Part shown: piece by piece, positions 13,104-42,848 of the stretch
Position numbering within the stretch: the stretch's first letter is position 1
Layout: each line of letters starts with the position of its first letter
DNA from: Candidatus Omnitrophota bacterium
Lineage (GTDB): Bacteria > Omnitrophota > Gorgyraeia > 2-01-FULL-45-10
DNA length: 64,000 bases
Assembly (NCBI GenBank): GCA_028699255.1
Contig: JAQVUX010000004.1
Location: forward strand, 24,668-88,667
Direction: 5' to 3'
Program-made: the position numbers and the translations under genes
The notes under the pieces: generated by a model
Database searches by the model: none
What the model saw: only the letters and a program-made list of their open reading frames with translations
What the model was told of the DNA's origin: nothing

Positions 13104-14545
13104 ATAACTATGACGTCATAATAATAGGCGGTGGCGTTGCGGGTACGGCGATAGCGCGCGAACTTTCGCGGTATCGCCTGAAGGTTAGCTTACTGGAAAA
13201 AGAGGTAGAGCTTGCCTTCGGTGTTTCCAAATCGAATAGCGGCATAATCCATCCCGGCACACAGCATAAGCCGGGTTCGCTTAAAGGACGGCTTTGCGTC
13301 GAGGGTAACGCGCTCACTAAACGGCTTGCCAAAGAGCTTTCGGTGGATTTTAAAGAAGTGGGGGAGCTCATCGTCGCTTTCAACGAAGAAGAACGCCTGC
13401 GGCTTCTGCAATTGAAGAAAGATGGCGACGAGCTCGGCGTGCCGCGCCTTACGATGGTCGATAGGGAATGGCTAAGAGCCAACGAGCCTAATCTATCTGA
13501 AAATGTCGTAGCCGCGCTTTACGCGCCGACGGCAGGGATCATAAGTCCATATCGCTGGGTTTACGATTTCGCAGAGAATGCCGCCGCGAACGGCGTTGAG
13601 ATACGCACCAGCGCGAAAGTCGAAAATATCCGTCAGGTAAATCCTGGATTCGAGATAGACACAACAAAAGGAATATTCAAAGGCCGGTATGTGGTTAATA
13701 CTGCGGGACTCTATGCCGATAGCATATCTGCGATGGTCGGAGTGAGCGATTTTAAAATACAACCGCGTAAAGGCGAGGAGTTTCTTCTCGATAAGAAGCG
13801 GGAAAACATAACCAAACATCTTCTTTTCCCGCTACCGTCGAAGATATCCAAAGGCATATTGGTTACAAGGACTTCCGACGGCAATCCGATGATAGGCCCG
13901 ACGTCTGAAGATGTCGGTGACAAAGAGGATCTGGCGACGACCGAAGCGGGGCTTAGTAAAGTCCTCGAAGGCGCCAGGAAGATGGTTCCTTCTATAAACC
14001 CAAACGATATTATCGCGTATTTCGCGGGTTTAAGGCCTGTCGCCGGGGAAGATTTTATAATAAGGCATGAGGGTAGCGCGCCGGGATTTATCAATGTCGC
14101 CGGAATACAGTCGCCCGGGCTTACCGCCGCGCCGGCCATAGCGCTTATGGTCGCGGGCCTTCTTAAGAGTAACGGCCTTAAAATGAGGAGAAAATTTTTC
14201 TTCCGCGCTCATCGCAGGGAAGAGGCGCATCTTTTCGCCGTTGGGTTGGATAAGGCGAAAAGTCTTATAGAAAAAGACCCGTCGTACGGCGATGTCGTTT
14301 GCAGATGCGAGACGGTATCGGCGAAAGAAGTGCGCGAGGCTATTGCGCGCGGAGCCGTAACGATGGACGGGATAAAATTCAGGACGCGCGCGCAGGCCGG
14401 GCGCTGTCACGGCAGTTTCTGTACGCCGCGACTTATGAAGATACTGGCGGAAGAGACGGGAAAGCCGCTTACGGGAGTTACGAAACGCGGTGAGGGGTCG
14501 GAATTGGTCAAGGAGCAAAGGGGTGAGGAAAAGACCGATGGTTAA
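13100..14545 (+). CDS. glpA: FAD-dependent glycerol-3-phosphate dehydrogenase/oxidase (anaerobic GlpA-like) with a C-terminal BFD-like [2Fe-2S] domain
   Basis: Dinucleotide-binding motif VIIIGGGVAGTAIARELS. The C-terminal segment CRCETVSAKEV...AGRCHGSFC is BFD-like. ATGA overlap with glpK. Confidence 0.8.
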   Translation: MNNYDVIIIGGGVAGTAIARELSRYRLKVSLLEKEVELAFGVSKSNSGIIHPGTQHKPGSLKGRLCVEGNALTKRLAKELSVDFKEVGELIVAFNEEERLRLLQLKKDGDELGVPRLTMVDREWLRANEPNLSENVVAALYAPTAGIISPYRWVYDFAENAAANGVEIRTSAKVENIRQVNPGFEIDTTKGIFKGRYVVNTAGLYADSISAMVGVSDFKIQPRKGEEFLLDKKRENITKHLLFPLPSKISKGILVTRTSDGNPMIGPTSEDVGDKEDLATTEAGLSKVLEGARKMVPSINPNDIIAYFAGLRPVAGEDFIIRHEGSAPGFINVAGIQSPGLTAAPAIALMVAGLLKSNGLKMRRKFFFRAHRREEAHLFAVGLDKAKSLIEKDPSYGDVVCRCETVSAKEVREAIARGAVTMDGIKFRTRAQAGRCHGSFCTPRLMKILAEETGKPLTGVTKRGEGSELVKEQRGEEKTDG

Positions 14546-15482
14546 AAGAGATATTGTGGTTATAGGCGGAGGCCCGGCTGGTATGGCGGCCGCGGCGGCG
14601 GCTTACGCGGCCGGGATAAAGGATATTCTTCTCATAGAGCGCGACCAGTATCTGGGCGGGCTTCTCAACCAATGCGTCCATACGGGATTCGGGATAGGTT
14701 ATTTTAAACAATTACTTACGGGCCCGGAATACGCCGACAGATTTATAAAGAAGATAAACGCGATATCGGACATAGAGGTAAGCCTGCGATCGTTCGTCGT
14801 GCGCCTGGCGCCCGATAAGACGGTTACATATCTTGTGCCGGGTAAACTTTGCGAAGTACAGCCGCGCGCGCTTATAATGGCGACCGGTTGCCGCGAGAGG
14901 ACACGCGAGATGATACACATCCCCGGCACGAGGCCTGCGGGCGTATTTTCCGCCGGGCTCGCCCAGCGGCTTATAAATATCGAGGGGTTGTTGCCGGGCA
15001 GGGAAGTGGTGATAATCGGTTCCGGTGACATAGGGCTTATCATGGCGCGGCGTTTTACGTTCGGCGGCGCGAAGGTCAAAGCGATAGTCGAGATACAGCC
15101 GAAGACCAGGGGGCTGGCGCGCAACGTCGTCCAGTGCGTTGATGATTTCGATATACCGGTATATTTTAATCACAAAGTCAGGAAGATCCGCGGCCAGGAA
15201 AGGGTTGAAGGTGTCGATATCGTTCGCATCGATGAGAATATGAATGAAATAGCCGGCACGGAGCTTAAAATAGACTGTGATACCGTGCTCGTATCGGTCG
15301 GGCTTATTCCGGAGAACGAACTTATCGAGATGGCGGGTTTTACCATCGATGAGGAGAAGAACCCGGGAGTATTCGTCTGCGGAAACGCGCGCAAAGTTTA
15401 TGACTATGTCGACTCTGTAACCGCCGATAGCGAGCTTGCCGGTAAGCGCGCCGCGGAGTTTATAATAAGAGGTAGCCGATGA
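14538..15482 (+). CDS. NAD(P)/FAD-dependent oxidoreductase (pyridine nucleotide-disulfide oxidoreductase family), second subunit of the clostridial/Thermotoga-type G3P dehydrogenase complex
   Basis: VVIGGGPAGMAAA and VVIIGSGDIGL Rossmann motifs. The start is chosen at ATG 14538, overlapping the glpA-like stop (ATGGTTAA). Confidence 0.75.
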   Translation: MVKRDIVVIGGGPAGMAAAAAAYAAGIKDILLIERDQYLGGLLNQCVHTGFGIGYFKQLLTGPEYADRFIKKINAISDIEVSLRSFVVRLAPDKTVTYLVPGKLCEVQPRALIMATGCRERTREMIHIPGTRPAGVFSAGLAQRLINIEGLLPGREVVIIGSGDIGLIMARRFTFGGAKVKAIVEIQPKTRGLARNVVQCVDDFDIPVYFNHKVRKIRGQERVEGVDIVRIDENMNEIAGTELKIDCDTVLVSVGLIPENELIEMAGFTIDEEKNPGVFVCGNARKVYDYVDSVTADSELAGKRAAEFIIRGSR

Positions 15483-30483: not shown

Positions 30484-30557
30484 AAACATCTTGACAAGAA
30501 TAGATGAATAGTGTATTCTTGATATTGAAAACCATTATCATTAAGGAGTGTATTGAT

Positions 30558-31031
30558 ATGCCAAGAGGAAACGGACAAGGCCCAGCATGGTGGCACGGAA
30601 GGTTTAAAGGTTGCGGTTACAGGATAACTGTCGGTCGTGAAGCTATTCTGGATGTGCTTACCAAAGCCGATAGGCATTTAAGCGCCGAAGATATATATAT
30701 GAAGGTGCATGCGGCGTATCCAGCGATAGGGCTTACCACTATATATAGGACGCTTGAGATCCTTGTTAATATGGGACTAGTATTCAAGTTCGACTTTGGT
30801 GATGGCAGGGCACGGTATGAACTGGCCGAAGGATCGAATAGAAGCACTCACCACCATCACTTGATATGCACTAATTGTAAAAGAGTGGTCGATTATACCG
30901 ACTTCATAGATGATGAGATAGAGTTGCTCCATAAGACGGAAAAAGGACTTTCCGAAAAGTACGATTTCGCAATTACAAACCATTTAATCCAATTTTATGG
31001 CTTATGTGATAAATGCAAGAAAAAGAAGTAG
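30558..31031 (+). CDS. fur: Fur-family transcriptional regulator (ferric uptake regulator-like)
   Basis: HHHHLICTNCKRV...CDKC metal-binding motifs. Winged-helix N-terminus. The start is taken at ATG 30558 after the RBS TTAAGGAG. The ORF track gives an earlier start at 30504. Confidence 0.8.
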   Translation: MPRGNGQGPAWWHGRFKGCGYRITVGREAILDVLTKADRHLSAEDIYMKVHAAYPAIGLTTIYRTLEILVNMGLVFKFDFGDGRARYELAEGSNRSTHHHHLICTNCKRVVDYTDFIDDEIELLHKTEKGLSEKYDFAITNHLIQFYGLCDKCKKKK

Positions 31032-31055
31032 GGGGAGATATATTTTTTTCGATAT

Positions 31056-31078
31056 AAATGGAAATGATTTTCATTAAC
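31056..31078. promoter_or_regulatory. Candidate Fur box (AAATGGAAATGATTTTCATTAAC) upstream of the DUF5320/NifX-like Fe-S gene cluster
   Basis: It contains the inverted repeat AATGAtttTCATT, resembling the Fur-box core AATGATAATCATT. A second Fur-box-like CCATTATCATTAA lies at 30536-30548, overlapping the fur RBS. Confidence 0.3.
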
Positions 31079-31106
31079 AGAAACTTAAGAAAAGGAGGTG
31101 ATTAAG

Positions 31107-31391
31107 ATGCCAGGAGGAGATGGAACAGGTCCAATGGGTATGGGCCCGATGACCGGTGGCGGGAGAGGGTTTTGCGTTGCTCCTGTATCCAGCATAAGGC
31201 CGAGATCGTTTGGAAGAGGCTACGGCAGGGGTTGGGGAAACCAGCTCTATGCCACAGGTCTTCCTCGTTGGGCAAGAGGTGCCAACGAAGCTGAAGTGTT
31301 GAAGGAAGAGGCTGGTTTTCTCAAAGAAGAGCTCAAGGCGGTCGAAGATCGTATTGAGACGCTGGAGAAGGCCCAAACATCCGCAGGATAA
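31107..31391 (+). CDS. DUF5320-family protein (Gly/Pro/Met-rich N-terminus, coiled-coil C-terminus)
   Basis: MPGGDGTGPMGMGPMTGGGRGFC is typical of DUF5320. RBS AAGGAGG at 31092-31098. Confidence 0.6.
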   Translation: MPGGDGTGPMGMGPMTGGGRGFCVAPVSSIRPRSFGRGYGRGWGNQLYATGLPRWARGANEAEVLKEEAGFLKEELKAVEDRIETLEKAQTSAG

Positions 31392-31481
31392 ATGGCGGAT
31401 AGGAGTGGAGCGCCAAGCGCGCAGTGCTCCATTCCTTGGGCATTGTGTTTATCGACATCAATATAACAAAAGAGGTGTGCT

Positions 31482-31844
31482 ATGAGATTAGGTATAACGC
31501 TTGAAGACCAGAGCGGTCTTCAGGGTAATGTTGCCGAGCATTTTGGGCAGTGTAAATATTTTTTTCTGCTGGACATTGAGAATAATAAAGTGAAGAGCAG
31601 TAGAATAGTTGAGAATACGGCAGTGCATGGCGGCGGAGGATGTATAGCCGTAGATGAATTGCTGAAATACAACGTTACCCATGTTATTGCAGGCGGGATG
31701 GGTGGCGGCGCTCAACAAAAATTCGCTCAAGCAGGCGTGAAAGTTTTCGGTTATTCAGGTAAAACAAAAGATGCGATAGATGATTTTTTGACAAATAAGA
31801 TTGGCGGGTTGGGCGCGTGTAAGGAACATGGCACATGCCACTAA
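31482..31844 (+). CDS. NifX/NifB-like dinitrogenase FeMo-cofactor-binding domain protein (COG1433 family)
   Basis: HFGQCKYFFLLDIEN...GGGG...VIAGGMGGGAQQKFAQAGVKV is the PF02579 pattern. Confidence 0.75.
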   Translation: MRLGITLEDQSGLQGNVAEHFGQCKYFFLLDIENNKVKSSRIVENTAVHGGGGCIAVDELLKYNVTHVIAGGMGGGAQQKFAQAGVKVFGYSGKTKDAIDDFLTNKIGGLGACKEHGTCH

Positions 31845-31857
31845 AGGAGAGTCGATT

Positions 31858-32235
31858 ATGAAGATCTGCGTGACATCGGAAGGTAAAACGCTCGATTCTA
31901 AAATAGATCCCCGTTTTGGAAGGTGCCAATATTTCGTATTTGTTGACACGGATACTTTAGATTTAGAAGCGGTTGAAAACCCGAATATGCAATTTCAGGG
32001 CGGCGCCGGAATTCAATCAGGGCAACTTATGATATCCAGGGGCGTAAAAGCCGTTCTGACCGGGAATGTCGGCCCTAACGCTTTTCAGACGCTGCAGGCA
32101 GGCGGTATAAAGATATATACCGGCCTTTCGGGGAAGGTCCGGAATGCTGTCGAAAATTATAAGAGCGGGGAATTAAAAACTACGGAAAACCCGAGCGTAG
32201 GGTCTAAATTCGGGATGCCGGGTAAAAATAAATAA
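31858..32235 (+). CDS. Second NifX/NifB-like domain protein
   Basis: RFGRCQYFVFVDTD...GGAG...AVLTGNVGPNAFQTLQAGGIKIY. RBS AAGGAGAG upstream. Confidence 0.75.
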   Translation: MKICVTSEGKTLDSKIDPRFGRCQYFVFVDTDTLDLEAVENPNMQFQGGAGIQSGQLMISRGVKAVLTGNVGPNAFQTLQAGGIKIYTGLSGKVRNAVENYKSGELKTTENPSVGSKFGMPGKNK

Positions 32236-32252
32236 AACCAGGGAGGTTAAAT

Positions 32253-32504
32253 ATGCCGTTTTTTGAGCCGTTAGAAAAGATGGATCCTAAACATGTTGAC
32301 TTGGAACGCGATAGGAAATCGTTAAGGGAAGAACTCGAAGCTATCGATTTCTATCAGGAGAGGATAGACGCCACAAGTGATGATTCCTTAAAGAAACTTC
32401 TCGCGCATAATATGAATGAGGAAAAAGAACACGCGGCCATGATTATAGAGTGGCTAAGGAAGAATGACGCGACACAAAACAAGATGTTTGATGAGCATGA
32501 TTAA
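32253..32504 (+). CDS. Small ferritin-like di-iron protein (encapsulated-ferritin EncFtn-like / rubrerythrin-like four-helix motif)
   Basis: EELEAIDFYQERIDAT...HNMNEEKEHAAMIIEWL shows the ExxH / E..AI..Y pattern of EncFtn-type ferritin-like proteins. RBS GGGAGG upstream. Confidence 0.5.
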   Translation: MPFFEPLEKMDPKHVDLERDRKSLREELEAIDFYQERIDATSDDSLKKLLAHNMNEEKEHAAMIIEWLRKNDATQNKMFDEHD

Positions 32505-33117
32505 TAAAGTTTCAATAGATAAAGAAGTCCGTGAGAATCATAAAGCATATCTTGAAAGAAAGAAGTTATATAAAAGTTTCGGCTACGATGTAGATAAAGA
32601 AAGGGATTTTATCTTAAGAGAGGCGATGCCACTTTCAGGTAAGATTCTTGAGGCCGGAACAGGCAAGGGCCATTTTGCGCTTGCGCTCGCGAAACGGGGG
32701 TATTCATTTGTAACCTTTGATATCTCAGAGGAAGAGCAGCGTTTTGCAAGGCTTAATATAGCGTATAACGGGCTTGAAAAACAGGTCGATTTCAGGATCG
32801 AAGACGGTGAACGCACAAGTTTTGCTGATGCAAGTTTCGATGTGGTTTTCTCTGTCAACGTCCTTCATCACCTCGCCAATCCATATCGAGTGATAAACGA
32901 CTTGATTCGAGTCCTTGCTCCGCACGGAAAATTAATCATCAGCGATTTCTCAAAGAAGGGTTTTGATGTTATGAATAAAATCCATGCGCTTGAAGGCAAA
33001 ACGCATGAATCAGGCAAGGTGAGCCTATCAGACGCCGAAAAGTATCTGTCAAATAAAGGTTTTTCGATCAAGAAAGCAAAGAGCATATACCAACATATTG
33101 TTGTGGCTACAAGGTAA
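32491..33117 (+). CDS. Class I SAM-dependent methyltransferase
   Basis: Motif I ILEAGTGKGHFALALA, motif II FDVVFS. Confidence 0.75.
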   Translation: MSMINKVSIDKEVRENHKAYLERKKLYKSFGYDVDKERDFILREAMPLSGKILEAGTGKGHFALALAKRGYSFVTFDISEEEQRFARLNIAYNGLEKQVDFRIEDGERTSFADASFDVVFSVNVLHHLANPYRVINDLIRVLAPHGKLIISDFSKKGFDVMNKIHALEGKTHESGKVSLSDAEKYLSNKGFSIKKAKSIYQHIVVATR

Positions 33118-33126
33118 ACAAGAATT

Positions 33127-33978
33127 ATGATTATTTCAGTCGCGAGTGGTAAGGGCGGAACAGGTAAGACTACAATTGCCGTTAATATGGCTTTGTCTTT
33201 AAGCAATGTGCAATTTCTTGATTGCGATGTCGAAGAGCCCAATGCCCATATTTTTCTAAAACCGGAAATAGAAGGAAGATCTTCGGCTTTTATTCCTATC
33301 CCGGAAGTAGATGAGGCAAGATGTAACGCGTGCGGCAAGTGCCGCGAAGTATGCGCTTATCATGCGATAGCCGTTATTCCTCCGAGCAATGATGCAAAGG
33401 GAAGCGTTCTCGTTTTTCCGCACTTATGTCATGGGTGCGGCGCCTGCAGTTTGCTTTGTCCTCAAAAAGCCATTAGAGAAGTAAATAAAGAGATAGGCGT
33501 TGTCGAAATAGGAATGTCGCAGGATATACAATTTGTTCATGGAAGACTCAATGTCGGTGAAATAATGTCTCCGCCTTTGATTAGGCAGGTCGAAGATTAT
33601 ATTAATCCCGCCAAAACCGTTATTATCGACGCGCCGCCCGGAACGTCCTGCCCTGTTATAGCCGCGGTTAAAAAAAGCGATTACTGCATACTTGTAACCG
33701 AGCCGACGCCATTCGGGCTTAATGACTTAGTGTTAGCAGTCGAGGTCTTAAGGAAGCTTGAGATTCGTTTCGGAGTCGTCATTAACCGCTCTGATATAGG
33801 CGATGATAAAGTTGACAAATATTGTCAGGATAACAATATATCAGTGCTTCTACGGATACCGTTCGATAGAGAGATAGCTCTTCTTTATTCACGCGGTATT
33901 TCGTTAGTTCAGGAGAAGCCGGAATATAAAGAAAAATTCCAGAAGATGTTTGCAATCATAACAAAAGAGATGCCATGA
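33127..33978 (+). CDS. MinD/ParA-superfamily P-loop ATPase with an inserted 2x[4Fe-4S] ferredoxin domain (COG1149 family)
   Basis: Deviant Walker A SGKGGTGKTT. Ferredoxin cysteine clusters CNACGKCREVC and CHGCGACSLLC. Confidence 0.8.
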   Translation: MIISVASGKGGTGKTTIAVNMALSLSNVQFLDCDVEEPNAHIFLKPEIEGRSSAFIPIPEVDEARCNACGKCREVCAYHAIAVIPPSNDAKGSVLVFPHLCHGCGACSLLCPQKAIREVNKEIGVVEIGMSQDIQFVHGRLNVGEIMSPPLIRQVEDYINPAKTVIIDAPPGTSCPVIAAVKKSDYCILVTEPTPFGLNDLVLAVEVLRKLEIRFGVVINRSDIGDDKVDKYCQDNNISVLLRIPFDREIALLYSRGISLVQEKPEYKEKFQKMFAIITKEMP

Positions 33979-34856
33979 GGCAGATAGTAGTTATAAGCGG
34001 TAAAGGCGGAACGGGTAAGACGATTCTTACAGCGTCATTTGCCGCCTTAGCTAAGAATAAGATAATGGTAGACTGCGATGTGGACGCTGCGGATCTGCAT
34101 CTTTTATTACATCCGAACGTAAAAGAACGTCAGGAATTCAAAAGCGGTAGGACCGCGAAGCTTGATAAGAAGATATGTAATAAATGCGGAAAGTGTATCA
34201 CTCTATGCAGATTCGGCGCAATTAGCGATGATCTGACTATAGATTCAGTGTCTTGTGAAGGTTGCGGGTTATGCAGCCTTATATGCCCTGCCGGTGCAAT
34301 AACTATGGAGGAGAACATAGCCGGTGAGTGGTTTATATCGGATACAAAATATGGTCCTTTTGTCCATGCCAAATTAGGTATTGCGGAAGAAAACTCTGGG
34401 AAACTTGTCGCGAAAATACGACAAGTAGCCAAGGAAATCGCTGAAAAAGACCGGCTCGACTATATTATCGTTGACGGGCCTCCGGGGATAGGATGCCCCG
34501 TTATTGCCTCACTTTCAGGCGTAGATTGCGCTATAGTAGTTACCGAGCCGACTCTTTCGGGGCTTCATGATGTGAAAAGAGTTATTGAAGTATGCGCTCA
34601 TTTTAAGGTGCCGGTTAAGATGGTTATCAATAAATATGATCTTAACATTGACATGACCGAGGAGATAGAAACATATTGTCGATCCGGGGATATTGAGGTT
34701 GTAGGTAAAATATTATTTGATAGCTCTATCCCCAAGACATTAGTAAGGGGTATAACGGCGATCGAAGGTGCTAGTGAAGAAGTAATAGAAGAGATAAAAG
34801 ATATATGGAGAAAAGTTATAAGCCATGATAATAACGAAGCAGAAACCGCTGGATGA
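33975..34856 (+). CDS. Second MinD-type ATPase with a ferredoxin insert (paralogue of the previous gene)
   Basis: SGKGGTGKT, CNKCGKCITLC and CEGCGLCSLIC. ATGA overlap with the upstream gene. Confidence 0.8.
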   Translation: MRQIVVISGKGGTGKTILTASFAALAKNKIMVDCDVDAADLHLLLHPNVKERQEFKSGRTAKLDKKICNKCGKCITLCRFGAISDDLTIDSVSCEGCGLCSLICPAGAITMEENIAGEWFISDTKYGPFVHAKLGIAEENSGKLVAKIRQVAKEIAEKDRLDYIIVDGPPGIGCPVIASLSGVDCAIVVTEPTLSGLHDVKRVIEVCAHFKVPVKMVINKYDLNIDMTEEIETYCRSGDIEVVGKILFDSSIPKTLVRGITAIEGASEEVIEEIKDIWRKVISHDNNEAETAG

Positions 34857-35481
34857 AATACTAAAATATATTAAGAATGATACAACCGTTTTCCTGATCG
34901 GATGCGCTGTCTGCGCGACTACCTGTAAGACCGGCGGCGAAAATGAGATAAAAAGTTTGTCAGAAGCACTTGAAAGGAAAGGTAAGACCGTAGCCGGGTG
35001 GGATATTCTTAATCCGGCTTGTTATGTTTTCGAGTCAAAGAAGCTTCTTAGGCGCAAAGAAAAAGAGCTTGCCGCTTCTCAATCGATTATAAGTCTTGCC
35101 TGTGGCGGTGGAACACAAGCCATAGCGGAAGTCGTGCAGAAACCGGTTTATCCGGCCAATGACACGTTATTTCAAGGGGAAATTGTCAGGCTTTCACCAA
35201 AAGAGGATCGTTTTGAGAAGAAGTGTCTGATGTGCGGGAAATGTATAGTGGGCATGACCGGTGGCATCTGCCCAATTACCAGATGTCCTAAAGGCCTGCG
35301 AAACGGCCCTTGCGGCGGGCAGAATAAAGGGAAGTGCGAAATCGATCCTGACCGTGATTGCGCGTGGATACTCATCTACAAAAGACTTAAAGAGTTGGGT
35401 CAGCTTGAAAATATGCGGTTAATGAACGGCGTAAGAGATCATAGAAAAGCAATTGATTGGTTGCTGGTTAATAAACATTAA
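34825..35481 (+). CDS. Cys-rich MTHFR_C-like domain protein (methylenetetrahydrofolate reductase C-terminal-like zinc/Fe-S module)
   Basis: CAVCATTC and CLMCGKC, followed by CPITRCPKGLRNGPCGG. The conserved NGPCGG motif is the hallmark of the MTHFR_C domain. Confidence 0.55.
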   Translation: MIITKQKPLDEILKYIKNDTTVFLIGCAVCATTCKTGGENEIKSLSEALERKGKTVAGWDILNPACYVFESKKLLRRKEKELAASQSIISLACGGGTQAIAEVVQKPVYPANDTLFQGEIVRLSPKEDRFEKKCLMCGKCIVGMTGGICPITRCPKGLRNGPCGGQNKGKCEIDPDRDCAWILIYKRLKELGQLENMRLMNGVRDHRKAIDWLLVNKH

Positions 35482-35484
35482 AAT

Positions 35485-36330
35485 ATGGCTGATAGAAAAA
35501 AAGATATTCATATTGTCAGATATTTTTCGTCATTGATTACGATATCAAATGGTAAAGTAATCAAAGTAACTAAGCCGACCATCTCGCATTGTCCGCTTGC
35601 CGGTTTTTTTTACAAAGGGCTCAAAAGATCCGGCGATTTGCCGCTTCCGCGGCTAAAGGACGAAATTAAAAAAGTCATTGAAGTCAAAATAGAACAGTTT
35701 GGTTTTTGCTCGAAAAAGCGTATCCTTTGGGATGACGATGAATCCGTGCCTTACGGCGCTTCGGAGATGATAACCCACGGTTTAAAGAATAAGATTATCG
35801 ATAGTTCCGTCATAGTCTGTGACGGCGCGGGTACGGTGGTAGTGTCAATTCCCCAGGTTGTGCAGGGTATAGGCGCCAGGATGCATAGCGTCCTTCGCAC
35901 ATCTGCAATTCCTGAGGTCATTGACAGGCTGCATCAATATGGCTGTCACACGATAAATAACGGTGGGATAATTGATCAAAAAAGAGGCGTTATTGAGGCC
36001 GCGAAAGAAGGTTATAAAAATATAGCCGTTACAGTCAGTGCCTATCAAGGAGAGGATTTAAAGAGTATCCGGGCATTGGAAAAGCAATACGGCATATCGC
36101 TGATCATTCTGGCGATATGCGCGACAGGCATCAACAAAGAGCGAATAACTGAAATAGAGAAATATGCAGATTTAGTCTGGGCATGCCGTTCTAGAGAAGT
36201 AAGGAATGTCCTGTGCATAAAAGCAGTTGAAATATTGTCAAATGCCTCGCCTGTATATATCCTTACACAGAAAGGGAAGATGTTTGTCTCCGGTTATTCG
36301 CCCAACATATTCAAAATGCGGAAGAAATGA
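35485..36330 (+). CDS. Conserved hypothetical protein, possibly DUF2099-like. I cannot verify this.
   Basis: 281-aa soluble protein with no motif I can name confidently. It is tightly coupled to its neighbours (4-nt overlap with the next gene). Confidence 0.5.
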   Translation: MADRKKDIHIVRYFSSLITISNGKVIKVTKPTISHCPLAGFFYKGLKRSGDLPLPRLKDEIKKVIEVKIEQFGFCSKKRILWDDDESVPYGASEMITHGLKNKIIDSSVIVCDGAGTVVVSIPQVVQGIGARMHSVLRTSAIPEVIDRLHQYGCHTINNGGIIDQKRGVIEAAKEGYKNIAVTVSAYQGEDLKSIRALEKQYGISLIILAICATGINKERITEIEKYADLVWACRSREVRNVLCIKAVEILSNASPVYILTQKGKMFVSGYSPNIFKMRKK

Positions 36331-36662
36331 AAGATAATAAATATTTCGGCCAGATGAATGACCCGAGCGGCTCAGCCTATATTAAAGGTATATGCGGTGA
36401 CCAGATGGAATTTTATATAGTAGTGGAGAATAACAAAATAATCGATGTTAAGTTTCATACTGACGGGTGTGTTTATACATTGGCCTGCGGAGCTATGGCG
36501 TGTAAGCTTGCGGTAGGAAAAACTATTCAGGATGCATTGGGTGTATCAGCAGGACAGATAATTACAGAATTGAAGGTTTTACCCAAAAGCCATGTTCATT
36601 GCGCGATACTTGCAGTGAGTACGTTATATAAAGCTATAGCTGATTATTTACTTAAACCATGA
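36327..36662 (+). CDS. IscU/NifU-N-like Fe-S cluster scaffold-domain protein
   Basis: ICGDQMEF, GC...LACGA and HCAILA correspond to the three conserved Cys plus His of the IscU/SufU fold. Confidence 0.6.
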   Translation: MKDNKYFGQMNDPSGSAYIKGICGDQMEFYIVVENNKIIDVKFHTDGCVYTLACGAMACKLAVGKTIQDALGVSAGQIITELKVLPKSHVHCAILAVSTLYKAIADYLLKP

Positions 36663-36669
36663 GGGGAAC

Positions 36670-37380
36670 GTGAAACTAAAGATTCTTGCTGAGGGTTCGA
36701 CAAAGTGGCGGCGTTTTATAAAACATTGGGGGTTGTCTATCCTGATAGACGACGATATTCTTTTTGATACATTCGGCAAACCGGATTATGTCCTAAGACA
36801 GTTGAAAAGATTTAAAATAGACATTAATAAAATAAAACATATTGTCATTTCTCACGATGACTGGGATCACGTTACCGGTTTGGATAAAATATTGGAGCGC
36901 AACAAGAATGTCACTGTCTATATATGCCCGCATTTTAAACCGGATATTAAAGCCAAAATACGACATTGTGGAGCGCGAATTGTAGAGGTAGATGGAGTGA
37001 CAAATATACGTGATAATATTTATTTAAGCGGTGAACTCACAGGAAAACGTCGCGATTCCAATATACCGGAACAATATTTGGCGGTAAAGACAGCTAAAGG
37101 GATTATTGTCCTTACAGGATGCGCCCATCCAGGCATAATAGAAATTGTGCAGCATGCCAAAGCTGCTTTTAATATGAATGCGTATCTTATTATGGGTGGT
37201 TTTCACCTTAAAGATCATACGGTCGAAGAAATCCATAAGATTGTATTAAAATTAAAAGAACTTGGAGTTTGTCAGGTAATTCCTTTTCATTGCACAGGCC
37301 GGAACGCGCAACAGATATGTTTCAAAGAATACAGTGCAAATTGTTTTGCGGTAAACGAGGGACAATCAATAGAAGTATAA
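36670..37380 (+). CDS. Metallo-beta-lactamase-fold hydrolase
   Basis: SHDDWDHVTG (HxHxDH variant) plus downstream His/Asp ligands (GCAHPG, GGFH). Confidence 0.7.
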   Translation: MKLKILAEGSTKWRRFIKHWGLSILIDDDILFDTFGKPDYVLRQLKRFKIDINKIKHIVISHDDWDHVTGLDKILERNKNVTVYICPHFKPDIKAKIRHCGARIVEVDGVTNIRDNIYLSGELTGKRRDSNIPEQYLAVKTAKGIIVLTGCAHPGIIEIVQHAKAAFNMNAYLIMGGFHLKDHTVEEIHKIVLKLKELGVCQVIPFHCTGRNAQQICFKEYSANCFAVNEGQSIEV

Positions 37381-37411: not shown

Positions 37412-37645
37412 ATGAAGAAAATATCTTTAGTGCATCTTAAACCTGACCAAAATGTTAAGGTTTCAGAAATTTTAGGAGGCGGCGGTTTACAGCATAGATT
37501 GACTAGTATGGGTCTGCATATAGGTATGAAAATCACCAAGCTTAGCCATATTGGATTAAGAGGGCCTGTAGTGATAAAGGTAGGCAGAAGTGTTCTTGCT
37601 CTGGGGCATGGTATGGCGGCAAAAGTTATCGTAGAGACGGAATGA
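37412..37645 (+). CDS. feoA: Ferrous iron transport protein FeoA
   Basis: 77-aa SH3-like protein. It lies directly upstream of feoB and overlaps it by 4 nt. Confidence 0.8.
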   Translation: MKKISLVHLKPDQNVKVSEILGGGGLQHRLTSMGLHIGMKITKLSHIGLRGPVVIKVGRSVLALGHGMAAKVIVETE

Positions 37646-39372
37646 TAAAGAAGATATATTTAATAGGCAATCCTAATGTCGGCAAAAGTGTGGTATTCTC
37701 CCGCCTTACAGATGTCCACGTAATCTCATCTAACTATCCCGGCACAACCGTAGAGTTTATTAAGGGCTATTTGAGCTTGGGAAATGAGAAGATCGAGGTT
37801 GTAGATTTACCCGGCACATATTCGCTGGAGCCGTCTTCAAGCGCCGAAGAAGTAGCTGTTTCCTTATTGAGAGAATGCTCTAAGAACGAAATCGCGGTGG
37901 TCAATATACTTGACTCGACCAATTTAGAGAGAAATTTGCTTTTAACCCTGCAGCTCATCGAAGAAGGATTTCCGACAATCGCATGCCTAAACATGTGCGA
38001 TGATGCTTTTCATAGGGGAGTTCATATTGATATTAAGAAACTGGAAGAAATAATACATATTCCGGTGATATCGACCTGTGCCGTAATCGGTGTAGGTATA
38101 AAATTATTGATCGACAGGATAAAAGAAGCGGCACCCGTCGTGAAAGATAAGGTTTCGCATGAAGAGCGTTGGAAAGAAATAGGACGTATTATCGAGCAGG
38201 TGCAGCGTCTTGAGCATCGTCATCATTACTTAAGAGAGATGCTGGAGGACGCGTCCGTGCGGCCAGTTTCAGGACTGATAATGGCGGCAGGGGTCATATA
38301 TGTATCGTTCAAGATAGTCCGGTTCATAGGCGAATTCATAATCGGTAGAATAACCGACCCTTTCTTTTACGGGACGATCCAGCCTTTGTTGGAAAAACTG
38401 GCCGCTCATTGGCAGGAAAAGAGTTTTATATTCCACTTACTTATAGGCGATCTAATCAATGGAAAGATCGATTTTAAGCAATCACTTGGTGTATTGACCA
38501 CAGCCCCTTACATTGAATTCGGTATGGTATTGCCGTATGTCATATCATTCTATCTTGTCCTAAGTCTTTTAGAAGATATAGGGTACTTGCCCCGTTTGGC
38601 GATATTACTGGATAATCTATTGCACCGTCTTGGCCTGCACGGCTACGCCATCATACCGGTGCTTTTAGGATTCGGTTGTAACGTTCCCGGTATATTGTCA
38701 ACGCGCGTTTTGGAGTCAAAACGCGAGAGATTTATCGCGTCGACTATTATTTCCATAGGTGTGCCATGTGTTCCACTGCAAGCAATGATTGTCGGGCTGT
38801 TGGGTGTATTTGGCGGTTTTTATGTGGGCGGGGTATATCTGGTGTTATTCATTATAATTTTGATATTAGGGATTATTTTAAACCGGGTATTGCCCGGATA
38901 CAGTCCCGAGTTTTTAATAGAAATCCCACCTTACAGATTTCCACCTTTAACAATGCTGGCAAGAAAATTATACTTTCGCGTTAAAGGATTTTTGTTCGAG
39001 GCGGTACCGATCGTTTTGATAGGCGTACTGGCTATTAATATCCTGCTGTATTTTAGGTTATTCGATATTATCACGGGAATATTCGCGCCGATTATCCATG
39101 GCTTATTCGGCTTGCCCAAAGAAGCGATAGTCGCCCTGATTATAGGTTTTTTAAGAAAAGATGTCGCAGTAGGGATGCTCGCGCCACTCGCGCTTTCAGC
39201 CAAGCAGTTATTCATAGCGGCAACATTGCTAGCGATATCATTCCCATGTATCGCTACGTTCATAGTTTTATGGAAAGAGTTGGGTGTGAAAGATCTGATT
39301 AAATCAACTGTCATTATGATAACGATTAGTATTATTGTGGGTACAGCGCTTAATTTTGTAGTATTGCGTTGA
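37642..39372 (+). CDS. feoB: Ferrous iron transporter FeoB (short form)
   Basis: N-terminal G-domain: G1 GNPNVGKS, G3 DLPG, G4 NMCD. A polytopic membrane domain follows. Confidence 0.88.
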   Translation: MIKKIYLIGNPNVGKSVVFSRLTDVHVISSNYPGTTVEFIKGYLSLGNEKIEVVDLPGTYSLEPSSSAEEVAVSLLRECSKNEIAVVNILDSTNLERNLLLTLQLIEEGFPTIACLNMCDDAFHRGVHIDIKKLEEIIHIPVISTCAVIGVGIKLLIDRIKEAAPVVKDKVSHEERWKEIGRIIEQVQRLEHRHHYLREMLEDASVRPVSGLIMAAGVIYVSFKIVRFIGEFIIGRITDPFFYGTIQPLLEKLAAHWQEKSFIFHLLIGDLINGKIDFKQSLGVLTTAPYIEFGMVLPYVISFYLVLSLLEDIGYLPRLAILLDNLLHRLGLHGYAIIPVLLGFGCNVPGILSTRVLESKRERFIASTIISIGVPCVPLQAMIVGLLGVFGGFYVGGVYLVLFIIILILGIILNRVLPGYSPEFLIEIPPYRFPPLTMLARKLYFRVKGFLFEAVPIVLIGVLAINILLYFRLFDIITGIFAPIIHGLFGLPKEAIVALIIGFLRKDVAVGMLAPLALSAKQLFIAATLLAISFPCIATFIVLWKELGVKDLIKSTVIMITISIIVGTALNFVVLR

Positions 39373-40404: not shown

Positions 40405-40878
40405 ATGGTTGATAGTAATCGGTTTTTGTTTTATAATAAAAAGAAACAATTTCTATCTATAGGTGTTCCCTTGGAAATATTACTAACAAGATTAAAATCG
40501 AATAAACTGAAGCAAACCCCAAAAAGAAAAGCTATTCTAAAACTGTTTTTAGATAAAAAACGCTTTTTAAGTCCCGAAAAAATTTTCGCCGTTATAAAAA
40601 AAGAATTTAAAAGGGCAAGCTTTCCATCGATCTATCGGAATTTGGATGAGCTATACAGGATAGGCATTCTTATCAAAGTACAAAAACCTGATAGAAGATT
40701 ATATTATGCTCTGTGCATGGCGAAGAACGATACTCATCATCACCACATAATCTGCGTAAAGTGCGGCAAGATAGGCGAATTTAAAGGATGCGATATAATA
40801 AATAAAAAGAAGATAGGCGGATTTAAGATTTTAGACCATTCACTGCAATTAGAAGGCCTTTGCAGTAAATGTTCATAG
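40405..40878 (+). CDS. Fur-family metalloregulator. By context it is probably Zur (zinc uptake regulator).
   Basis: HHHHIICVKCGKIGEF...CSKCS. It lies adjacent to DUF3299-znuACB. The exact start is uncertain because the N-terminus is AT-rich and has no RBS. Confidence 0.7.
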   Translation: MVDSNRFLFYNKKKQFLSIGVPLEILLTRLKSNKLKQTPKRKAILKLFLDKKRFLSPEKIFAVIKKEFKRASFPSIYRNLDELYRIGILIKVQKPDRRLYYALCMAKNDTHHHHIICVKCGKIGEFKGCDIINKKKIGGFKILDHSLQLEGLCSKCS

Positions 40879-42798: not shown

Positions 42799-42848
42799 CT
42801 TGACAATCCATCTTTGCGTGTTACTATAAATAGAAATGATTTCTATTT
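42799..42848 (+). promoter_or_regulatory. znuA promoter (TTGACA-N16-TACTAT) overlapped by a perfect 11-1-11 palindrome TAAATAGAAATgATTTCTATTTA (candidate Zur operator)
   Basis: The -35 is at 42799-42804. The palindrome is at 42826-42848. Its architecture is like the B. subtilis Zur box TAAATCGTAATnATTACGATTTA. Confidence 0.55.

Follow-up and report, generated by a model that had tools for sequence, protein, structure and literature searches.

The 64-kb stretch of DNA analysed here (the window) carries, between fur and feoAB, a cluster of 11 tightly packed genes that all lie on the + strand (Table 1). The genes for the two MinD-ferredoxin proteins overlap by 4 nt, as do DUF2099/IscU-like and feoA/feoB. 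The widest spacers are those between DUF5320 and NifX-like a (90 nt) and between fur and DUF5320 (75 nt); the remaining spacers are no longer than 31 nt. An initial annotation of this DNA had described the same packed, co-directional arrangement, which the gene map bears out, and all of its domain calls agree with the assignments made here from Pfam matches above the gathering score. The one gene that it left as hypothetical is a DUF2099 gene (241.9 bits).

Table 1. Coordinates of genes and predicted elements from the fur promoter to feoB
Feature	Position	Strand	Description
Sigma-70-like promoter (predicted)	30491..30519	+	TTGACA, 17-nt spacer, TATTCT
Operator 1	30520..30540	.	21-bp Fur-box-like palindrome TGATATTGAAAACCATTATCA; PWM score 24.5
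fur	30558-31031	+	
Operator 2	31053..31079	.	Overlapping pair of 21-bp Fur-box-like sites between fur and DUF5320; PWM scores 20.9 and 26.2
DUF5320	31107-31391	+	
Stem-loop	31401..31436	+	13-bp, in the DUF5320-NifX-like a spacer, without U-tract
NifX-like a	31482-31844	+	
NifX-like b	31858-32235	+	
EncFtn-like	32253-32504	+	
SAM methyltransferase	32497 (or 32464)-33117	+	
MinD-ferredoxin 1	33127-33978	+	
MinD-ferredoxin 2	33975-34856	+	
DUF5981/MTHFR_C	34825-35481	+	
DUF2099	35485-36330	+	
IscU-like	36327-36662	+	
MBL	36670-37380	+	
feoA	37412-37645	+	
feoB	37642-39372	+	

The DUF5320 protein (PF17253, 78 bits) starts at the ATG that gives MPGGDG, as in its orthologs, where the motif MPGxDGTGP...GRGYC is conserved. 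Gly, Arg and aromatic residues abound in its N-terminal half, which contains one Cys and is followed by an acidic coiled-coil tail; counted from the GTG at 31098 that opens the listed ORF, residues 1–62 have a pI of 11.6 and include 17 Gly, 7 Arg, 1 Cys and 6 aromatic residues. The stem-loop in the spacer downstream (MFE −30.8 kcal/mol over a 101-nt stretch, z-score −1.86) may serve in the processing or the stability of the mRNA. Both NifX-like proteins consist of a single Nitro_FeMo-Co domain (PF02579; 66.5 bits for a and 84.2 bits for b). NifX-like a is of a Cys-rich type, with HFGQC, GGGGC and a C-terminal CKEHGTCH, and matches the Di-Nase part of the MrpORP model (positions 273–364, E = 1.9e-14); HFGxC is found in 49/51 of its orthologs and at least three Cys in 50/51. 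NifX-like b has few Cys and belongs to the orange-protein/MTH1175 type, with 2WFB (orange protein, E = 1.1e-22) and 1EO1 (MTH1175, E = 3.5e-20) as its top PDB matches.

The two ATPases each match the CbiA/ParA and Fer4 families of Pfam and are MinD-type P-loop proteins into which a 2x[4Fe-4S] ferredoxin domain is inserted. Both combine a deviant Walker A motif and a Cys in switch II (DAPPGTSC in ATPase 1 and DGPPGIGC in ATPase 2) with two CxxCxxCxxxC motifs. They are paralogs, with 35% identity over 274 residues, and both match parts of the MrpORP model; the nearest solved relatives of ATPase 1 are MinD and Mrp. The deviant Walker A motif is present in 148 of 150 MinD-like ORFs, and the switch II Cys is invariant in every such ORF that bears a ferredoxin domain.

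Among the remaining proteins, the EncFtn-like protein (PF22277, 101.7 bits) is a mini-ferritin without a targeting tail that covers only positions 1–79 of the 114 in TIGR04535 (91 bits vs a cutoff of 125). The class I SAM-dependent methyltransferase (Methyltransf_11, 81.4 bits) matches no NCBIfam model at or above cutoff. The DUF5981/MTHFR_C protein (PF12225, 111.5 bits) is MetV-like, has 12 invariant Cys (C27, C30, C66, C93, C134, C137, C140, C149, C154, C163, C171 and C179) and no MetF gene nearby, and is a probable Fe-S/Zn electron-transfer subunit. The DUF2099 protein resembles methanogenesis marker 8; its fold is remotely FrhB-like, and Cys36, Cys112 and Cys234 are conserved. The IscU-like protein (NifU_N, PF01592, 82.7 bits; 87 bits against TIGR03419, under the cutoff of 187.9) retains the three Cys ligands together with the Asp and His (GICGD, DGC and HVHC), and CGD and HC motifs occur in 45/50 orthologs. 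The MBL protein (Lactamase_B, PF00753, 35.2 bits) is COG1237-type, with PDB matches to 7DCK (E = 6e-31), 3H3E (TM1679) and 2P4Z. FeoA (59 bits) and FeoB (FeoB_N, 163 bits) constitute a ferrous iron importer. A PWM scan of the 64-kb window found no operator upstream of feoAB; given this and the gap of 31 nt between the MBL gene and feoA, feoAB is probably co-transcribed with the cluster.

The Fur-box-like site reported in the initial annotation is real: AATGATTTTCATT lies at 31063–31075, inside operator 2, and by chance the window would hold 0.08 exact matches to the pattern AATGRWWWYCATT. The conserved operator palindrome, TGnwAATGrwwwyCATTwnCA, occupies two fixed positions, one in the fur promoter and one 5′ of DUF5320. 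Operator 1 directly follows the −10 hexamer of a predicted promoter that agrees with the sigma-70 consensus at 10 of 12 positions, a consensus match only, and that lies directly 5′ of the operator and fur. The operator is ~37 nt from the fur start codon, and in almost all of 40 regions (39 orthologous loci and the window) the motif lies 30–56 nt 5′ of fur. Operator 2 is likewise kept in the fur–DUF5320 spacer across orthologous loci. Above-threshold PWM positions in the whole window are limited to 30520, 31053 and 31059, and in 1.23 Mb of related loci 62/64 sites are directly 5′ of fur or DUF5320 orthologs, a specificity test with some circularity, since the PWM recovers the very orthologous sites from which it was built. 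The fur gene is the first of the array and is presumably autoregulated.

The effector of the encoded protein, Fur1 (FUR family PF01475, 108.6 bits), is ambiguous. The Fur-type operator and overall similarity (130 bits against a Bacillus-type Fur model vs 97 bits against a PerR model, each under its own cutoff) favor Fur, whereas an Asp at the position equivalent to PerR Asp104, present in 33/40 operon-leading Fur orthologs, argues for peroxide sensitivity (PMC4866751).

The operon is real and widely conserved in uncultured anaerobes. In the genomes of dozens of other species, the genes again lie on one strand in the order Fur-DUF5320-NifX-NifX-MTase-MinDFd-MinDFd-DUF2099-IscU-MBL, a co-conserved, operon-like arrangement. 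Other species provided 36 well-flanked loci, with labels that include Omnitrophota, Planctomycetia, Actinomycetota and Clostridia. In these, the orange-protein (ORP)-like core is accompanied by DUF2099, on the same strand, in 32, by MBL in 30, by the methyltransferase, at the same position, in 29, by DUF5320 in 26, and by Fur and IscU in 24 each. The initial annotation had seen a distinct variant in the co-occurrence of EncFtn-like, MTHFR_C-like and IscU-like genes. The IscU-like gene is indeed a conserved partner of the core, along with DUF2099, MBL and the methyltransferase, but EncFtn (6/36 well-flanked loci and 11/80 loci) and DUF5981 (7/36) are sporadic accessories. On a related contig, independent gene calls with Pfam labels reproduce this series, with FUR first and FeoA-FeoB-Metallophos last. 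The feoAB genes also lie downstream in the same array in relatives L004, L005 and L082, and the L082 array, like the window, ends in feoAB-Metallophos. The version in the window is a reduced form of a ~30-gene array that likewise ends in feoAB. Most long forms also carry radical SAM and DUF89 genes, which the whole 64-kb window lacks; its version of the array may for this reason be incomplete or need genes located elsewhere.

Two questions are (i) which known system the core resembles and (ii) what the operon handles. For the first question, the COG1149/COG1433/DUF5320 neighborhood, for which the initial annotation knew of no assigned function, corresponds to a cluster already described in Desulfovibrio vulgaris, that of the ORP (orange protein) complex. 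There, Orp3 and Orp4, P-loop proteins that carry two [4Fe-4S] motifs, co-purify as Fe-S proteins with the orange protein Orp8 and can be loaded with clusters in vitro by MrpORP (PMC6345978). What the ORP complex does physiologically has been called unclear, with links to cell morphology and division (PMC8359166). The ATPase pair parallels Orp3/Orp4 in domains and motifs, rather than by direct sequence comparison with Orp3, Orp4, Orp5 or Orp7. The window cluster has neither a cysteine desulfurase nor an Mrp/NBP35-type carrier equivalent to Orp9, and whereas the Desulfovibrio orp genes are under sigma-54 and OrpR control and are on under reducing conditions, the window cluster has Fur-type operators. 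The two NifX-like proteins and the DUF5320 protein would together resemble a split IssA, the tail of which is described as having the chemical character seen in DUF5320 (PMC5524996). The combination of a Fur-led array and conserved operators with an ORP-like core, DUF2099, IscU-like, MBL and methyltransferase genes appears to be new.

For the second question, of the metallocluster machine proposed initially, a place in iron and Fe-S metabolism holds, and the ATPases could drive cluster handling. The cluster contains nothing specific to nitrogenase-type cofactor assembly: NifB, NifEN and NifH are absent, scores against Fer4_NifH reach only 17–19 bits (cutoff 25), and no client enzyme is identifiable. 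If the system is an iron store, classical Fur repression would turn it off when iron is replete, which is the wrong direction. As a Fur-type sensor apparently controls relatives of the ORP complex, an IscU-like protein, a marker-8-like protein and an iron importer, iron and Fe-S clusters are probably what the complex handles. The operon most likely does so in a metal-responsive and possibly also peroxide-responsive manner. We consider it somewhat probable that this is a single metal-responsive operon in which ORP-type Fe-S machinery, extended by a redox module and an IscU-type scaffold, is coupled to ferrous iron import.

In our model, metal-loaded Fur1 would repress through the two 21-bp palindromic operators, the first at the place where transcription from the sigma-70-like promoter would start and the second just 5′ of DUF5320. 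Loss of Fe2+ from Fur1, through iron scarcity or possibly, since Fur1 carries the PerR-type Asp, through peroxide oxidation, would allow transcription from fur through feoB. FeoAB would then import Fe2+, which the mini-ferritin could buffer, and the IscU-like protein would build clusters, probably using sulfide directly because no desulfurase is encoded. The NifX-like proteins and the Gly/Arg/aromatic-rich DUF5320 protein may hold Fe-S species. The MinD-ferredoxin pair could act as an ATP-driven dimer, as Orp3/Orp4 with Orp8, that receives clusters and hands clusters or electrons onward, with the FrhB-like DUF2099 and MetV-like proteins giving or taking reducing equivalents. An iron and redox context is also seen in relatives, where variable slots of the array are occupied by ZIP, CDF, ferritin, peroxiredoxin, thioredoxin and CoA-disulfide-reductase-like genes.

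The best-supported reading of the array running from fur to feoB is an operon for iron and Fe-S handling under metal-sensor control. An orange protein (ORP)-like core, homologous at the level of architecture, would work with an IscU-type scaffold and redox proteins and would be coupled to Fe2+ import; its members may form a complex, and DUF2099, the MBL protein and the methyltransferase would presumably have roles in the same handling. ORF listing and Pfam scans place all of the genes in a co-directional, gap-poor array on the + strand (see table), and every domain call of the initial annotation scores above the Pfam gathering score. The gene that it had left as hypothetical belongs to the family DUF2099 (Pfam 241.9 bits). 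Upstream, the array is flanked by unrelated housekeeping genes (glycerol kinase and dehydrogenase, pst-phoU, thyX and nrdDG) and downstream, on the same strand, by genes for a metallophosphoesterase, a second Fur-family protein and a DsbD-like protein, followed by znuABC. In the 31 nt between the MBL gene and feoA we find neither an operator (PWM scan) nor a convincing terminator, and co-transcription through feoB is predicted. The 90-nt spacer between the DUF5320 and NifX-like a genes contains a perfect 13-bp stem-loop without a U-tract (z-score -1.86 relative to shuffles), which may give DUF5320 and the later genes different expression levels.

Features of the fur-feoB array and of the znuA upstream region (window positions)
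Feature	Position	Strand	Remark
Sigma-70-like promoter	30491-30519		TTGACA, 17-nt spacer, TATTCT; consensus match
Operator 1	30520-30540		TGATATTGAAAACCATTATCA; directly after the -10 hexamer of the promoter
fur (Fur1)	30558-31031	+	
N-terminal extension of Fur1	30558-30640		MPRGNGQGPAWWHGRFKGCGYRIT
Operator 2	31053-31079		two overlapping related sites in the fur-DUF5320 spacer
DUF5320	31107-31391	+	
Stem-loop	31401-31436		
NifX-like a	31482-31844	+	
NifX-like b	31858-32235	+	
EncFtn-like	32253-32504	+	
SAM methyltransferase	32497-33117	+	
M1	33127-33978	+	MinD-type ATPase with ferredoxin insert
M2	33975-34856	+	MinD-type ATPase with ferredoxin insert
DUF5981/MTHFR_C	34825-35481	+	
DUF2099	35485-36330	+	
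NifU_N/IscU-like	36327-36662	+	
MBL-fold protein	36670-37380	+	
feoA	37412-37645	+	
feoB	37642-39372	+	
Second Fur-family gene (Fur2)	40405-40878		
Promoter-like sequence	42800-42827		TTGACA, 16-nt spacer, TACTAT
Fur-family box	42835-42847		AATGATTTCTATT; one mismatch
znuA	42861		

A scan of one genome per GTDB species with a DUF2099 alignment yielded 80 loci, and the window proteins were then searched against the ORFs of these loci. By label, 36 belong to Omnitrophota, 13 to Planctomycetia/Planctomycetales, 8 to unclassified bacteria, 6 to Actinomycetota, 5 to Spirochaetota, 4 to Elusimicrobia/Endomicrobiales, 3 to Clostridia, 2 to named candidate taxa, 2 to archaeal-labelled MAGs and 1 to Nitrospiraceae. 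The order Fur-DUF5320-NifXa-NifXb-(EncFtn)-MTase-M1-M2-DUF2099-IscU-MBL recurs on one strand in these relatives, and the proposed co-conservation of the cluster genes is borne out by the retention of order and strand in dozens of species labelled as several phyla. We counted components in the 36 loci having at least 8 kb of upstream and at least 6 kb of downstream sequence. The ORP-like core, for which we required two or more MinD-like ATPases together with a NifX-like gene, is present in 32/36, followed by MBL (30/36), the methyltransferase (29/36), DUF5320 (26/36), radical SAM (25/36), Fur and the IscU-like gene (24/36 each) and DUF89 (20/36); DUF5981 and EncFtn are found in 7/36 and 6/36, respectively. 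Five Spirochaetota loci (L045, L047, L062, L064 and L080) and a Nanoarchaeota-labelled one (L070) encode DUF2099 without ORP-like partners within 10 kb, and the linkage between DUF2099 and the ORP-like genes is therefore strong but not universal. A MAG labelled Methanosarcinales (L039) contains a bacterial-style cluster that includes a peptide deformylase gene, for which mis-binning or horizontal transfer seems possible.

Clustering of unassigned ORFs identifies additional recurrent members of the related loci that are absent from the window: a radical SAM protein of ~265 aa, a DUF89/ARMT1 protein, a CoA-binding protein with a CoA-disulfide-reductase-like flavoprotein, a small Cys-rich and Gly/Arg-rich protein, thioredoxin, a J-domain protein, ZIP, peptide deformylase, Rrf2 and DsrE-like proteins. 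None of the radical SAM, DUF89, PNDR, thioredoxin, J-domain and small-Cys genes of the related loci was found in the window, where the sole trace of these accessories is a weak PNDR-like match in an unrelated gene at 14439-15479. The slot 3′ of NifXb varies among relatives and is occupied by EncFtn, another ferritin, a peroxiredoxin or MetK. A long form of the arrangement is seen on a 112-kb Omnitrophota contig (L082, 1-20444), where independent gene calls with precomputed Pfam hits give ~30 co-directional genes from FUR to FeoB-Metallophos. This array begins with FUR-DUF5320-NifX-NifX-EncFtn-MTase-MinDFd-DsrE-MinDFd-CDF-DUF5981-Mrp-DUF2099-NifU_N-ZIP-MBL and continues directly with CoA_binding-PNDR-rSAM-?-?-HypA-Trx-OsmC-DnaJ-PvlArgDC-FeoA-FeoB-Metallophos. 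With its CDF efflux protein and pyruvoyl-dependent arginine decarboxylase, this long form looks like a metal and redox 'super-operon'. Because the two ends of the L082 array correspond to those in the window, we regard the window array as a reduced form and feoAB as part of the unit in this lineage. Six other clusters (L012, L033, L055, L056, L068 and L072) encode a full HydG equivalog (432 bits with TIGR03955, whose cutoff is 312), located either between the two MinD-ferredoxin genes or after IscU. The product of HydG is the Fe(CO)2CN synthon of [FeFe]-hydrogenase.

The closest characterized counterpart of the core is the ORP cluster of Desulfovibrio vulgaris Hildenborough (orp3-orp4-orp5/orpR/orp7-orp8-orp9, DVU2103-DVU2109). 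In D. vulgaris, Orp3 and Orp4 are similar to one another and have two [4Fe-4S] ferredoxin motifs each, Orp8 is a homolog of orange protein and Orp5 of a small [2Fe-2S] protein, and Orp9 (MrpORP) is an Mrp/NBP35 ATPase fused to a NifX-type 'Di-Nase' domain; MrpORP passes Fe-S clusters to Orp3-Orp4-Orp8 in vitro, and the characterized ORP proteins carry ordinary Fe-S clusters (PMC6345978). The view in the initial annotation that no function had been assigned to this neighbourhood is thus outdated for the biochemistry, since ORP proteins have been characterized (PMC6345978), but it remains fair for the physiology: the role of the complex has been called 'still unclear', with a link to cell division as one hypothesis (PMC3897727, PMC8359166).

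The window proteins appear to be homologous to the ORP proteins in architecture, as judged from the published domain organization (PMC6345978), the structural match of NifX-like b and partial matches to the NCBIfam 'MrpORP' model. That model (NF041136) is matched in pieces by both NifX-like proteins and both ATPases, the separate proteins scoring 32-65 bits against a cutoff of 450. The best PDB match of NifX-like b is orange protein 2WFB (E = 1.1e-22, residues 2-112), followed by MTH1175. Shared with the ORP cluster are the two paralogous P-loop ATPases with ferredoxin motifs, the single-domain NifX/MTH1175-type protein and a restriction to anaerobes; small accompanying proteins in the manner of Orp5 and Orp7 may be a further common trait, with DUF5320 as the candidate in the window. 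The differences lie in regulation and in gene content. The Desulfovibrio genes form two divergent operons that are switched on by sigma-54, OrpR and IHF under reducing conditions (PMC3897727, PMC8359166), whereas the genes in the window form one co-directional array, preceded by a sigma-70-like promoter and equipped with a Fur-family repressor and two operators, and no enhancer-binding-protein gene is found between fur and feoB or immediately upstream of the array. DUF2099, the IscU-like gene, MBL and the methyltransferase are conserved here but are not among the orp genes in the cited papers, the long forms add radical SAM and DUF89, and feoAB is attached. An Mrp-type ATPase or Mrp-NifX fusion corresponding to Orp9 is absent from the window cluster. 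However, 38 MinD-like ORFs of the related loci lack the ferredoxin insert and have the Mrp/NBP35-type motif DSPPGTGD, so that the long forms also encode an unfused Orp9-like carrier. In 27 loci a protein of 70-100 aa, which we call smallCys, is encoded between NifX-like b and the methyltransferase (e.g. L075, 5678-5911); it is not in the window. It starts with MPRxDGTGP, contains a stretch rich in Gly and Arg as well as the motif CxCxxC...CxxxxCxxC, shows no Pfam match and is a candidate counterpart of the [2Fe-2S] protein Orp5.

M1 and M2, which combine the CbiA/ParA and Fer4 families, are paralogs with 35% identity, and each contains a deviant Walker A motif and two CxxCxxCxxxC motifs. The deviant Walker A (GKGGxGKT) and a dimer-type P-loop fold are shared with Mrp/NBP35/ApbC, NifH, CooC and HypB. 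In contrast to those proteins, M1 and M2 have an inserted ferredoxin domain (2x[4Fe-4S]) behind the Walker A region, lack the Mrp CxxC motif and score below threshold for the NifH family. Both have a switch II cysteine seven residues after the Asp (DAPPGTSC in M1 and DGPPGIGC in M2), as do all of the ferredoxin-bearing MinD-like ORFs of the related loci (112/112). Asp125 and Cys132 of NifH have the same spacing.

The IscU-like protein (PF01592, 82.7 bits) retains the three Cys, Asp and His ligands (GICGD, DGC and HVHC), motifs that are kept in 45/50 orthologs, although it falls below the equivalog cutoffs (TIGR03419, 87 bits against 187.9; TIGR01999, 58.7 against 192.4). No cysteine desulfurase (aminotransferase class V gene) is present in the window or L082 arrays. 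The two NifX-like proteins differ in cysteine content. NifX-like a is Cys-rich, with HFGxC in 49/51 orthologs and at least three Cys in 50/51, and the motif recalls the CxHFGHCE reported for the MrpORP Di-Nase domain; NifX-like b is Cys-poor, as is orange protein. The MBL protein groups with TM1679, 2P4Z (COG1237-type) and 7DCK. The EncFtn-like protein (PF22277, 101.7 bits) has an ExxH metal motif (EEKEH) and matches only positions 1-79 of 114 of TIGR04535 (91 bits against a cutoff of 125), and therefore lacks the C-terminal part, presumably the place of the encapsulin targeting sequence. Its lack of a shell partner, also proposed from the initial reading, holds among the window ORFs scanned: there is no encapsulin shell gene, and the neighbours are NifX-like b and the methyltransferase. 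DUF5981 (PF12225, 111.5 bits) has 12 invariant Cys and shares its domain and dense invariant cysteines with MetV of the acetogen MetVF. Unlike MetV, it is encoded without MetF (no MTHFR gene occurs in the window cluster), abuts DUF2099 and is found in about one-fifth of the related clusters.

The first 62 residues of DUF5320, counted from the GTG at 31098, include 17 Gly, 7 Arg, 6 aromatic residues and 1 Cys (pI 11.6) and are followed by an acidic coiled coil. Across 46 orthologs the N-terminal half has a mean pI of 10.6, with 30% Gly and 11% Arg. A similar combination is found in P. furiosus IssA, which stores Fe and S as thioferrate and in which a NifX-family domain is joined to a tail (pI 10.7) that is cationic, aromatic and rich in Gly and has a single Cys (PMC5524996). 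The two systems share the NifX-family domain (IPR003731/PF02579) and a cationic Gly/Arg/aromatic single-Cys segment, a likeness of chemical composition. Here, however, the segment belongs to a separate protein with an acidic coiled coil rather than to a C-terminal tail, and thioferrate particles of the IssA kind are hypothetical for the present system.

DUF2099 scores 213.9 bits against the NCBIfam model for methanogenesis marker 8 (TIGR03275), just under the cutoff of 232.7. Its nearest relatives are bacterial by label, chiefly Candidatus Omnitrophota/Omnitrophica MAGs, and the family is small, amounting to 365 clusters (50% identity) in a set of 1.84 billion representatives. The AlphaFold2 model (mean pLDDT 87.9) places FdhB, HCAR and Fsr at the top of the Foldseek ranking, with TM-scores of 0.30-0.36. 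About 140 of 281 residues align to the FrhB family (F420 hydrogenase/dehydrogenase beta, HCAR and the N-terminal half of Fsr) at 12-19% identity, and there is no sequence-level match to this family. The model thus suggests a remote, domain-level likeness to FrhB-type Fe-S flavoproteins. PDB sequence searches with DUF2099 and DUF5981 returned no matches, and the domain fusions of DUF2099 consist of N-terminal extensions without an informative Pfam domain. Four cysteines are invariant among close relatives, but over 75 representatives of the family conservation is 80-93% for Cys36, Cys112 and Cys234 and drops to 48% for Cys212, so that a four-Cys cluster site is not assured.

Operator 1 matches GATAATGATAATCATTATC at 16/19 positions (30521-30539), and its 21-bp palindrome resolves into a pair of overlapping 7-1-7 units that end in TG...CA. 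Such units are the form of the B. subtilis Fur box, not of the PerR or Zur box. Over 39 orthologous loci and the window, the best classical Fur-box match keeps a fixed distance, mostly 30-56 nt, upstream of the fur start, and a Fur-box-like match recurs in the fur-DUF5320 spacer of the orthologous loci. The mean match is 13.9 of 19 before fur and 13.5 in the spacer, compared with 10.9 +/- 1.1 for random 160-nt windows. A PWM built from 67 sites has the consensus TGnwAATGrwwwyCATTwnCA. Its only above-threshold hits in the 64-kb window are the operator 1 position and two operator 2 positions, and in 1.23 Mb of loci it finds 64 sites, 62 of which are directly upstream of fur or DUF5320 orthologs; this recovery is partly circular for sensitivity but informative for specificity, because almost nothing else scores. 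A global iron regulon marked by the Fur box was also considered. Throughout the window and within 10 kb of the loci, however, the motif is almost confined to the two 5′ positions of the operon, and Fur1 may instead be dedicated to this operon.

Fur1, the product of the leading fur gene, matches PF01475 (108.6 bits) and has the structural Zn-site motifs CTNC and CDKC. Among curated models it scores best with NF051892 (Bacillus Fur), at 130 bits for a cutoff of 220, and lower with the PerR models (97 and 74 bits), whose cutoffs it does not reach either. Fur1 shares with Fur a Glu (RYEL) at the Asp85 equivalent. Where PerR has Asp104, however, it has Asp (HHHHLICTNCKRVVDY), as do 33/40 operon-leading orthologs; this residue is reported to be Asp in PerR and Glu in Fur proteins, and it may govern access of H2O2 (PMC4866751). 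Since operator and overall similarity are Fur-like yet the Asp is of the PerR type, the effector would be either iron alone or iron together with peroxide. Fur1 also has an N-terminal extension of ~20 residues, with the FUR domain match beginning at residue 20, and the start of the extension echoes the MPGxDGTGP start of DUF5320.

Several of the alternative readings are compatible with an operon for iron and Fe-S handling. One that we hold to be possible, if somewhat doubtful, is a PerR-type oxidative-stress operon that senses peroxide or oxygen and whose products protect, repair or rebuild oxidized Fe-S proteins in strict anaerobes. The Asp at the PerR Asp104 position would fit this role, as would a regulator gene with its own operator, as in classical perR, and the accessories found in relatives, namely peroxiredoxin, OsmC, thioredoxin, a CoA-disulfide-reductase/NADH-oxidase-like flavoprotein, ferritins and a J-domain protein. 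However, the operator half-sites end TG...CA in Fur-box fashion, and B. subtilis PerR boxes are TTATAAT...ATTATAA. Fur1 is nearer to Fur in its model scores and at the Asp85 equivalent, the feoAB, ZIP and CDF transporters of the array suit metal control, and iron and peroxide signals are mutually compatible. Storage of iron and Fe-S in the manner of IssA is unlikely in our estimate. In such a system the NifX-like proteins would nucleate thioferrate-like material, the cationic DUF5320 would wrap it and the ATPases would mobilize it, consistent with the shared composition of the DUF5320 N-terminal half and the IssA tail (PMC5524996), with the DUF5320 gene lying directly upstream of the two NifX-like genes and with the ferritin-like gene that often adjoins them. 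Beyond the compositional nature of the likeness, regulation would probably be opposite, as IssA is made at abundant iron and sulfide and a classical Fur would turn the operon on at iron scarcity. The presence of feoAB in the same predicted transcript favours acquisition, and DUF2099, the MBL protein and the methyltransferase are left unexplained by storage.

The initial annotation had favoured an ATP-driven maturase that makes one complex metallocofactor and inserts it into a client enzyme, in the manner of NifH/NifEN/NifX or CooC/HypB. NifX-family carriers, SIMIBI ATPases with Fe-S domains, a scaffold and a methyltransferase do occur together, and DUF2099 belongs to a small family named for its presence in methanogens, users of unusual metallocofactors. 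This reading is kept alive by the radical SAM and DUF89 proteins of the long forms and their occasional bona fide HydG equivalog, but we consider it distinctly unlikely. There is no conserved candidate client enzyme in or beside the cluster, and the radical SAM, DUF89 and HydG genes of the related clusters are all missing from the window. The variable slots hold general metal and redox genes (ferritins, Prx, Trx, ZIP, CDF and Feo) rather than a pathway-specific set, and the ORP proteins characterized so far bind ordinary Fe-S clusters (PMC6345978). Nitrogenase-like cofactor maturation is rejected because NifB, NifEN and NifH are absent; just the NifX-family domain is present, and the Fer4_NifH scores (18.7 and 17.4 bits) stay below the cutoff of 25. 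A function in the cytoskeleton or in positioning, with the MinD-like ATPases acting in septum placement or protein localization as first proposed for the ORP complex, appears very improbable. Both ATPases are of the MinD/ParA class, with archaeal MinD structures among their best PDB matches, and in D. vulgaris loss of orp expression leads to morphological defects and MrpORP is polar (PMC6345978, PMC8359166). Against this, the genes conserved alongside encode proteins of metal and redox metabolism and transporters for metals, with a metal-sensor repressor over them, division genes are absent from the array, the two [4Fe-4S] motifs and switch II Cys of the ATPases resemble those of cluster-handling SIMIBI proteins, and on informal inspection a MinD-type C-terminal membrane-targeting helix is not obvious. 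Chance juxtaposition of unrelated small genes might account for the sporadic EncFtn and DUF5981 and for housekeeping-looking genes such as those for peptide deformylase and MetK in the long forms, but it is effectively refuted by the conserved order, strand and partners in dozens of species of several labelled phyla, by the 4-nt gene overlaps and by the dedicated operator conserved at the 5′ end.

An operon for iron and Fe-S handling invites comparison with the E. coli suf operon, which functions in Fe-S assembly and is Fur-repressed and induced by oxidative stress. The proposed system would be similar in being a Fur-box-controlled, stress-time Fe-S system expressed beside iron acquisition. 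The protein families are unrelated, however: SufBCD, SufS and SufE do not occur here, the scaffold is of the IscU type and the ATPases are of the MinD/Mrp class rather than the ABC type. More speculatively, and in our view improbably, the conserved array, with or without Mrp, together with the radical SAM and DUF89 proteins of the long forms could constitute a self-contained, unrecognized anaerobe pathway, alongside ISC, SUF and NIF, that builds, stores and delivers Fe-S clusters, or a more complex cluster derived from them, directly from Fe2+ and sulfide, with the ORP complex as its ATP-driven core and DUF2099 as an essential redox component. If true, this would explain the retention of marker 8 by methanogens.

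The ORP kinship of the system is partly described already. As far as the searched literature shows, the new elements are (i) the conserved association of DUF2099, an IscU-like scaffold, MBL and a methyltransferase with the ORP-like core, (ii) the leading Fur-family gene with two dedicated operators and (iii) the attachment to Feo, ZIP and CDF transporters. The same literature yielded no functional work on DUF5320 (PF17253), COG1149, COG1433 or DUF2099 (TIGR03275, PF09872) and nothing relevant that links a Fur regulon to the NifX family. The ORP complex has reportedly been studied for more than 10 years in one organism. Its homologs in many uncultured lineages sit in a Fur-family-led operon with an IscU-type scaffold and metal transporters, a context that shifts the working hypothesis for the complex from cell division towards iron and Fe-S homeostasis and gives the question of its purpose a testable direction. 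We know of no earlier genomic context for DUF2099 (methanogenesis marker 8) outside methanogens, and the operon ties this 'marker' protein to Fe-S handling. The finding is solid and conserved, and it is hypothesis-generating with respect to function, which we infer from the gene context.

The second Fur-family protein, Fur2 (PF01475, 85 bits), is encoded downstream of feoAB and the metallophosphoesterase gene and has Glu at the equivalent of PerR Asp104. Some 2 kb past its gene, a promoter-like sequence is followed by a one-mismatch Fur-family box just upstream of znuA. Judging from these sequences, Fur2 is probably Zur and the site upstream of znuA its box.
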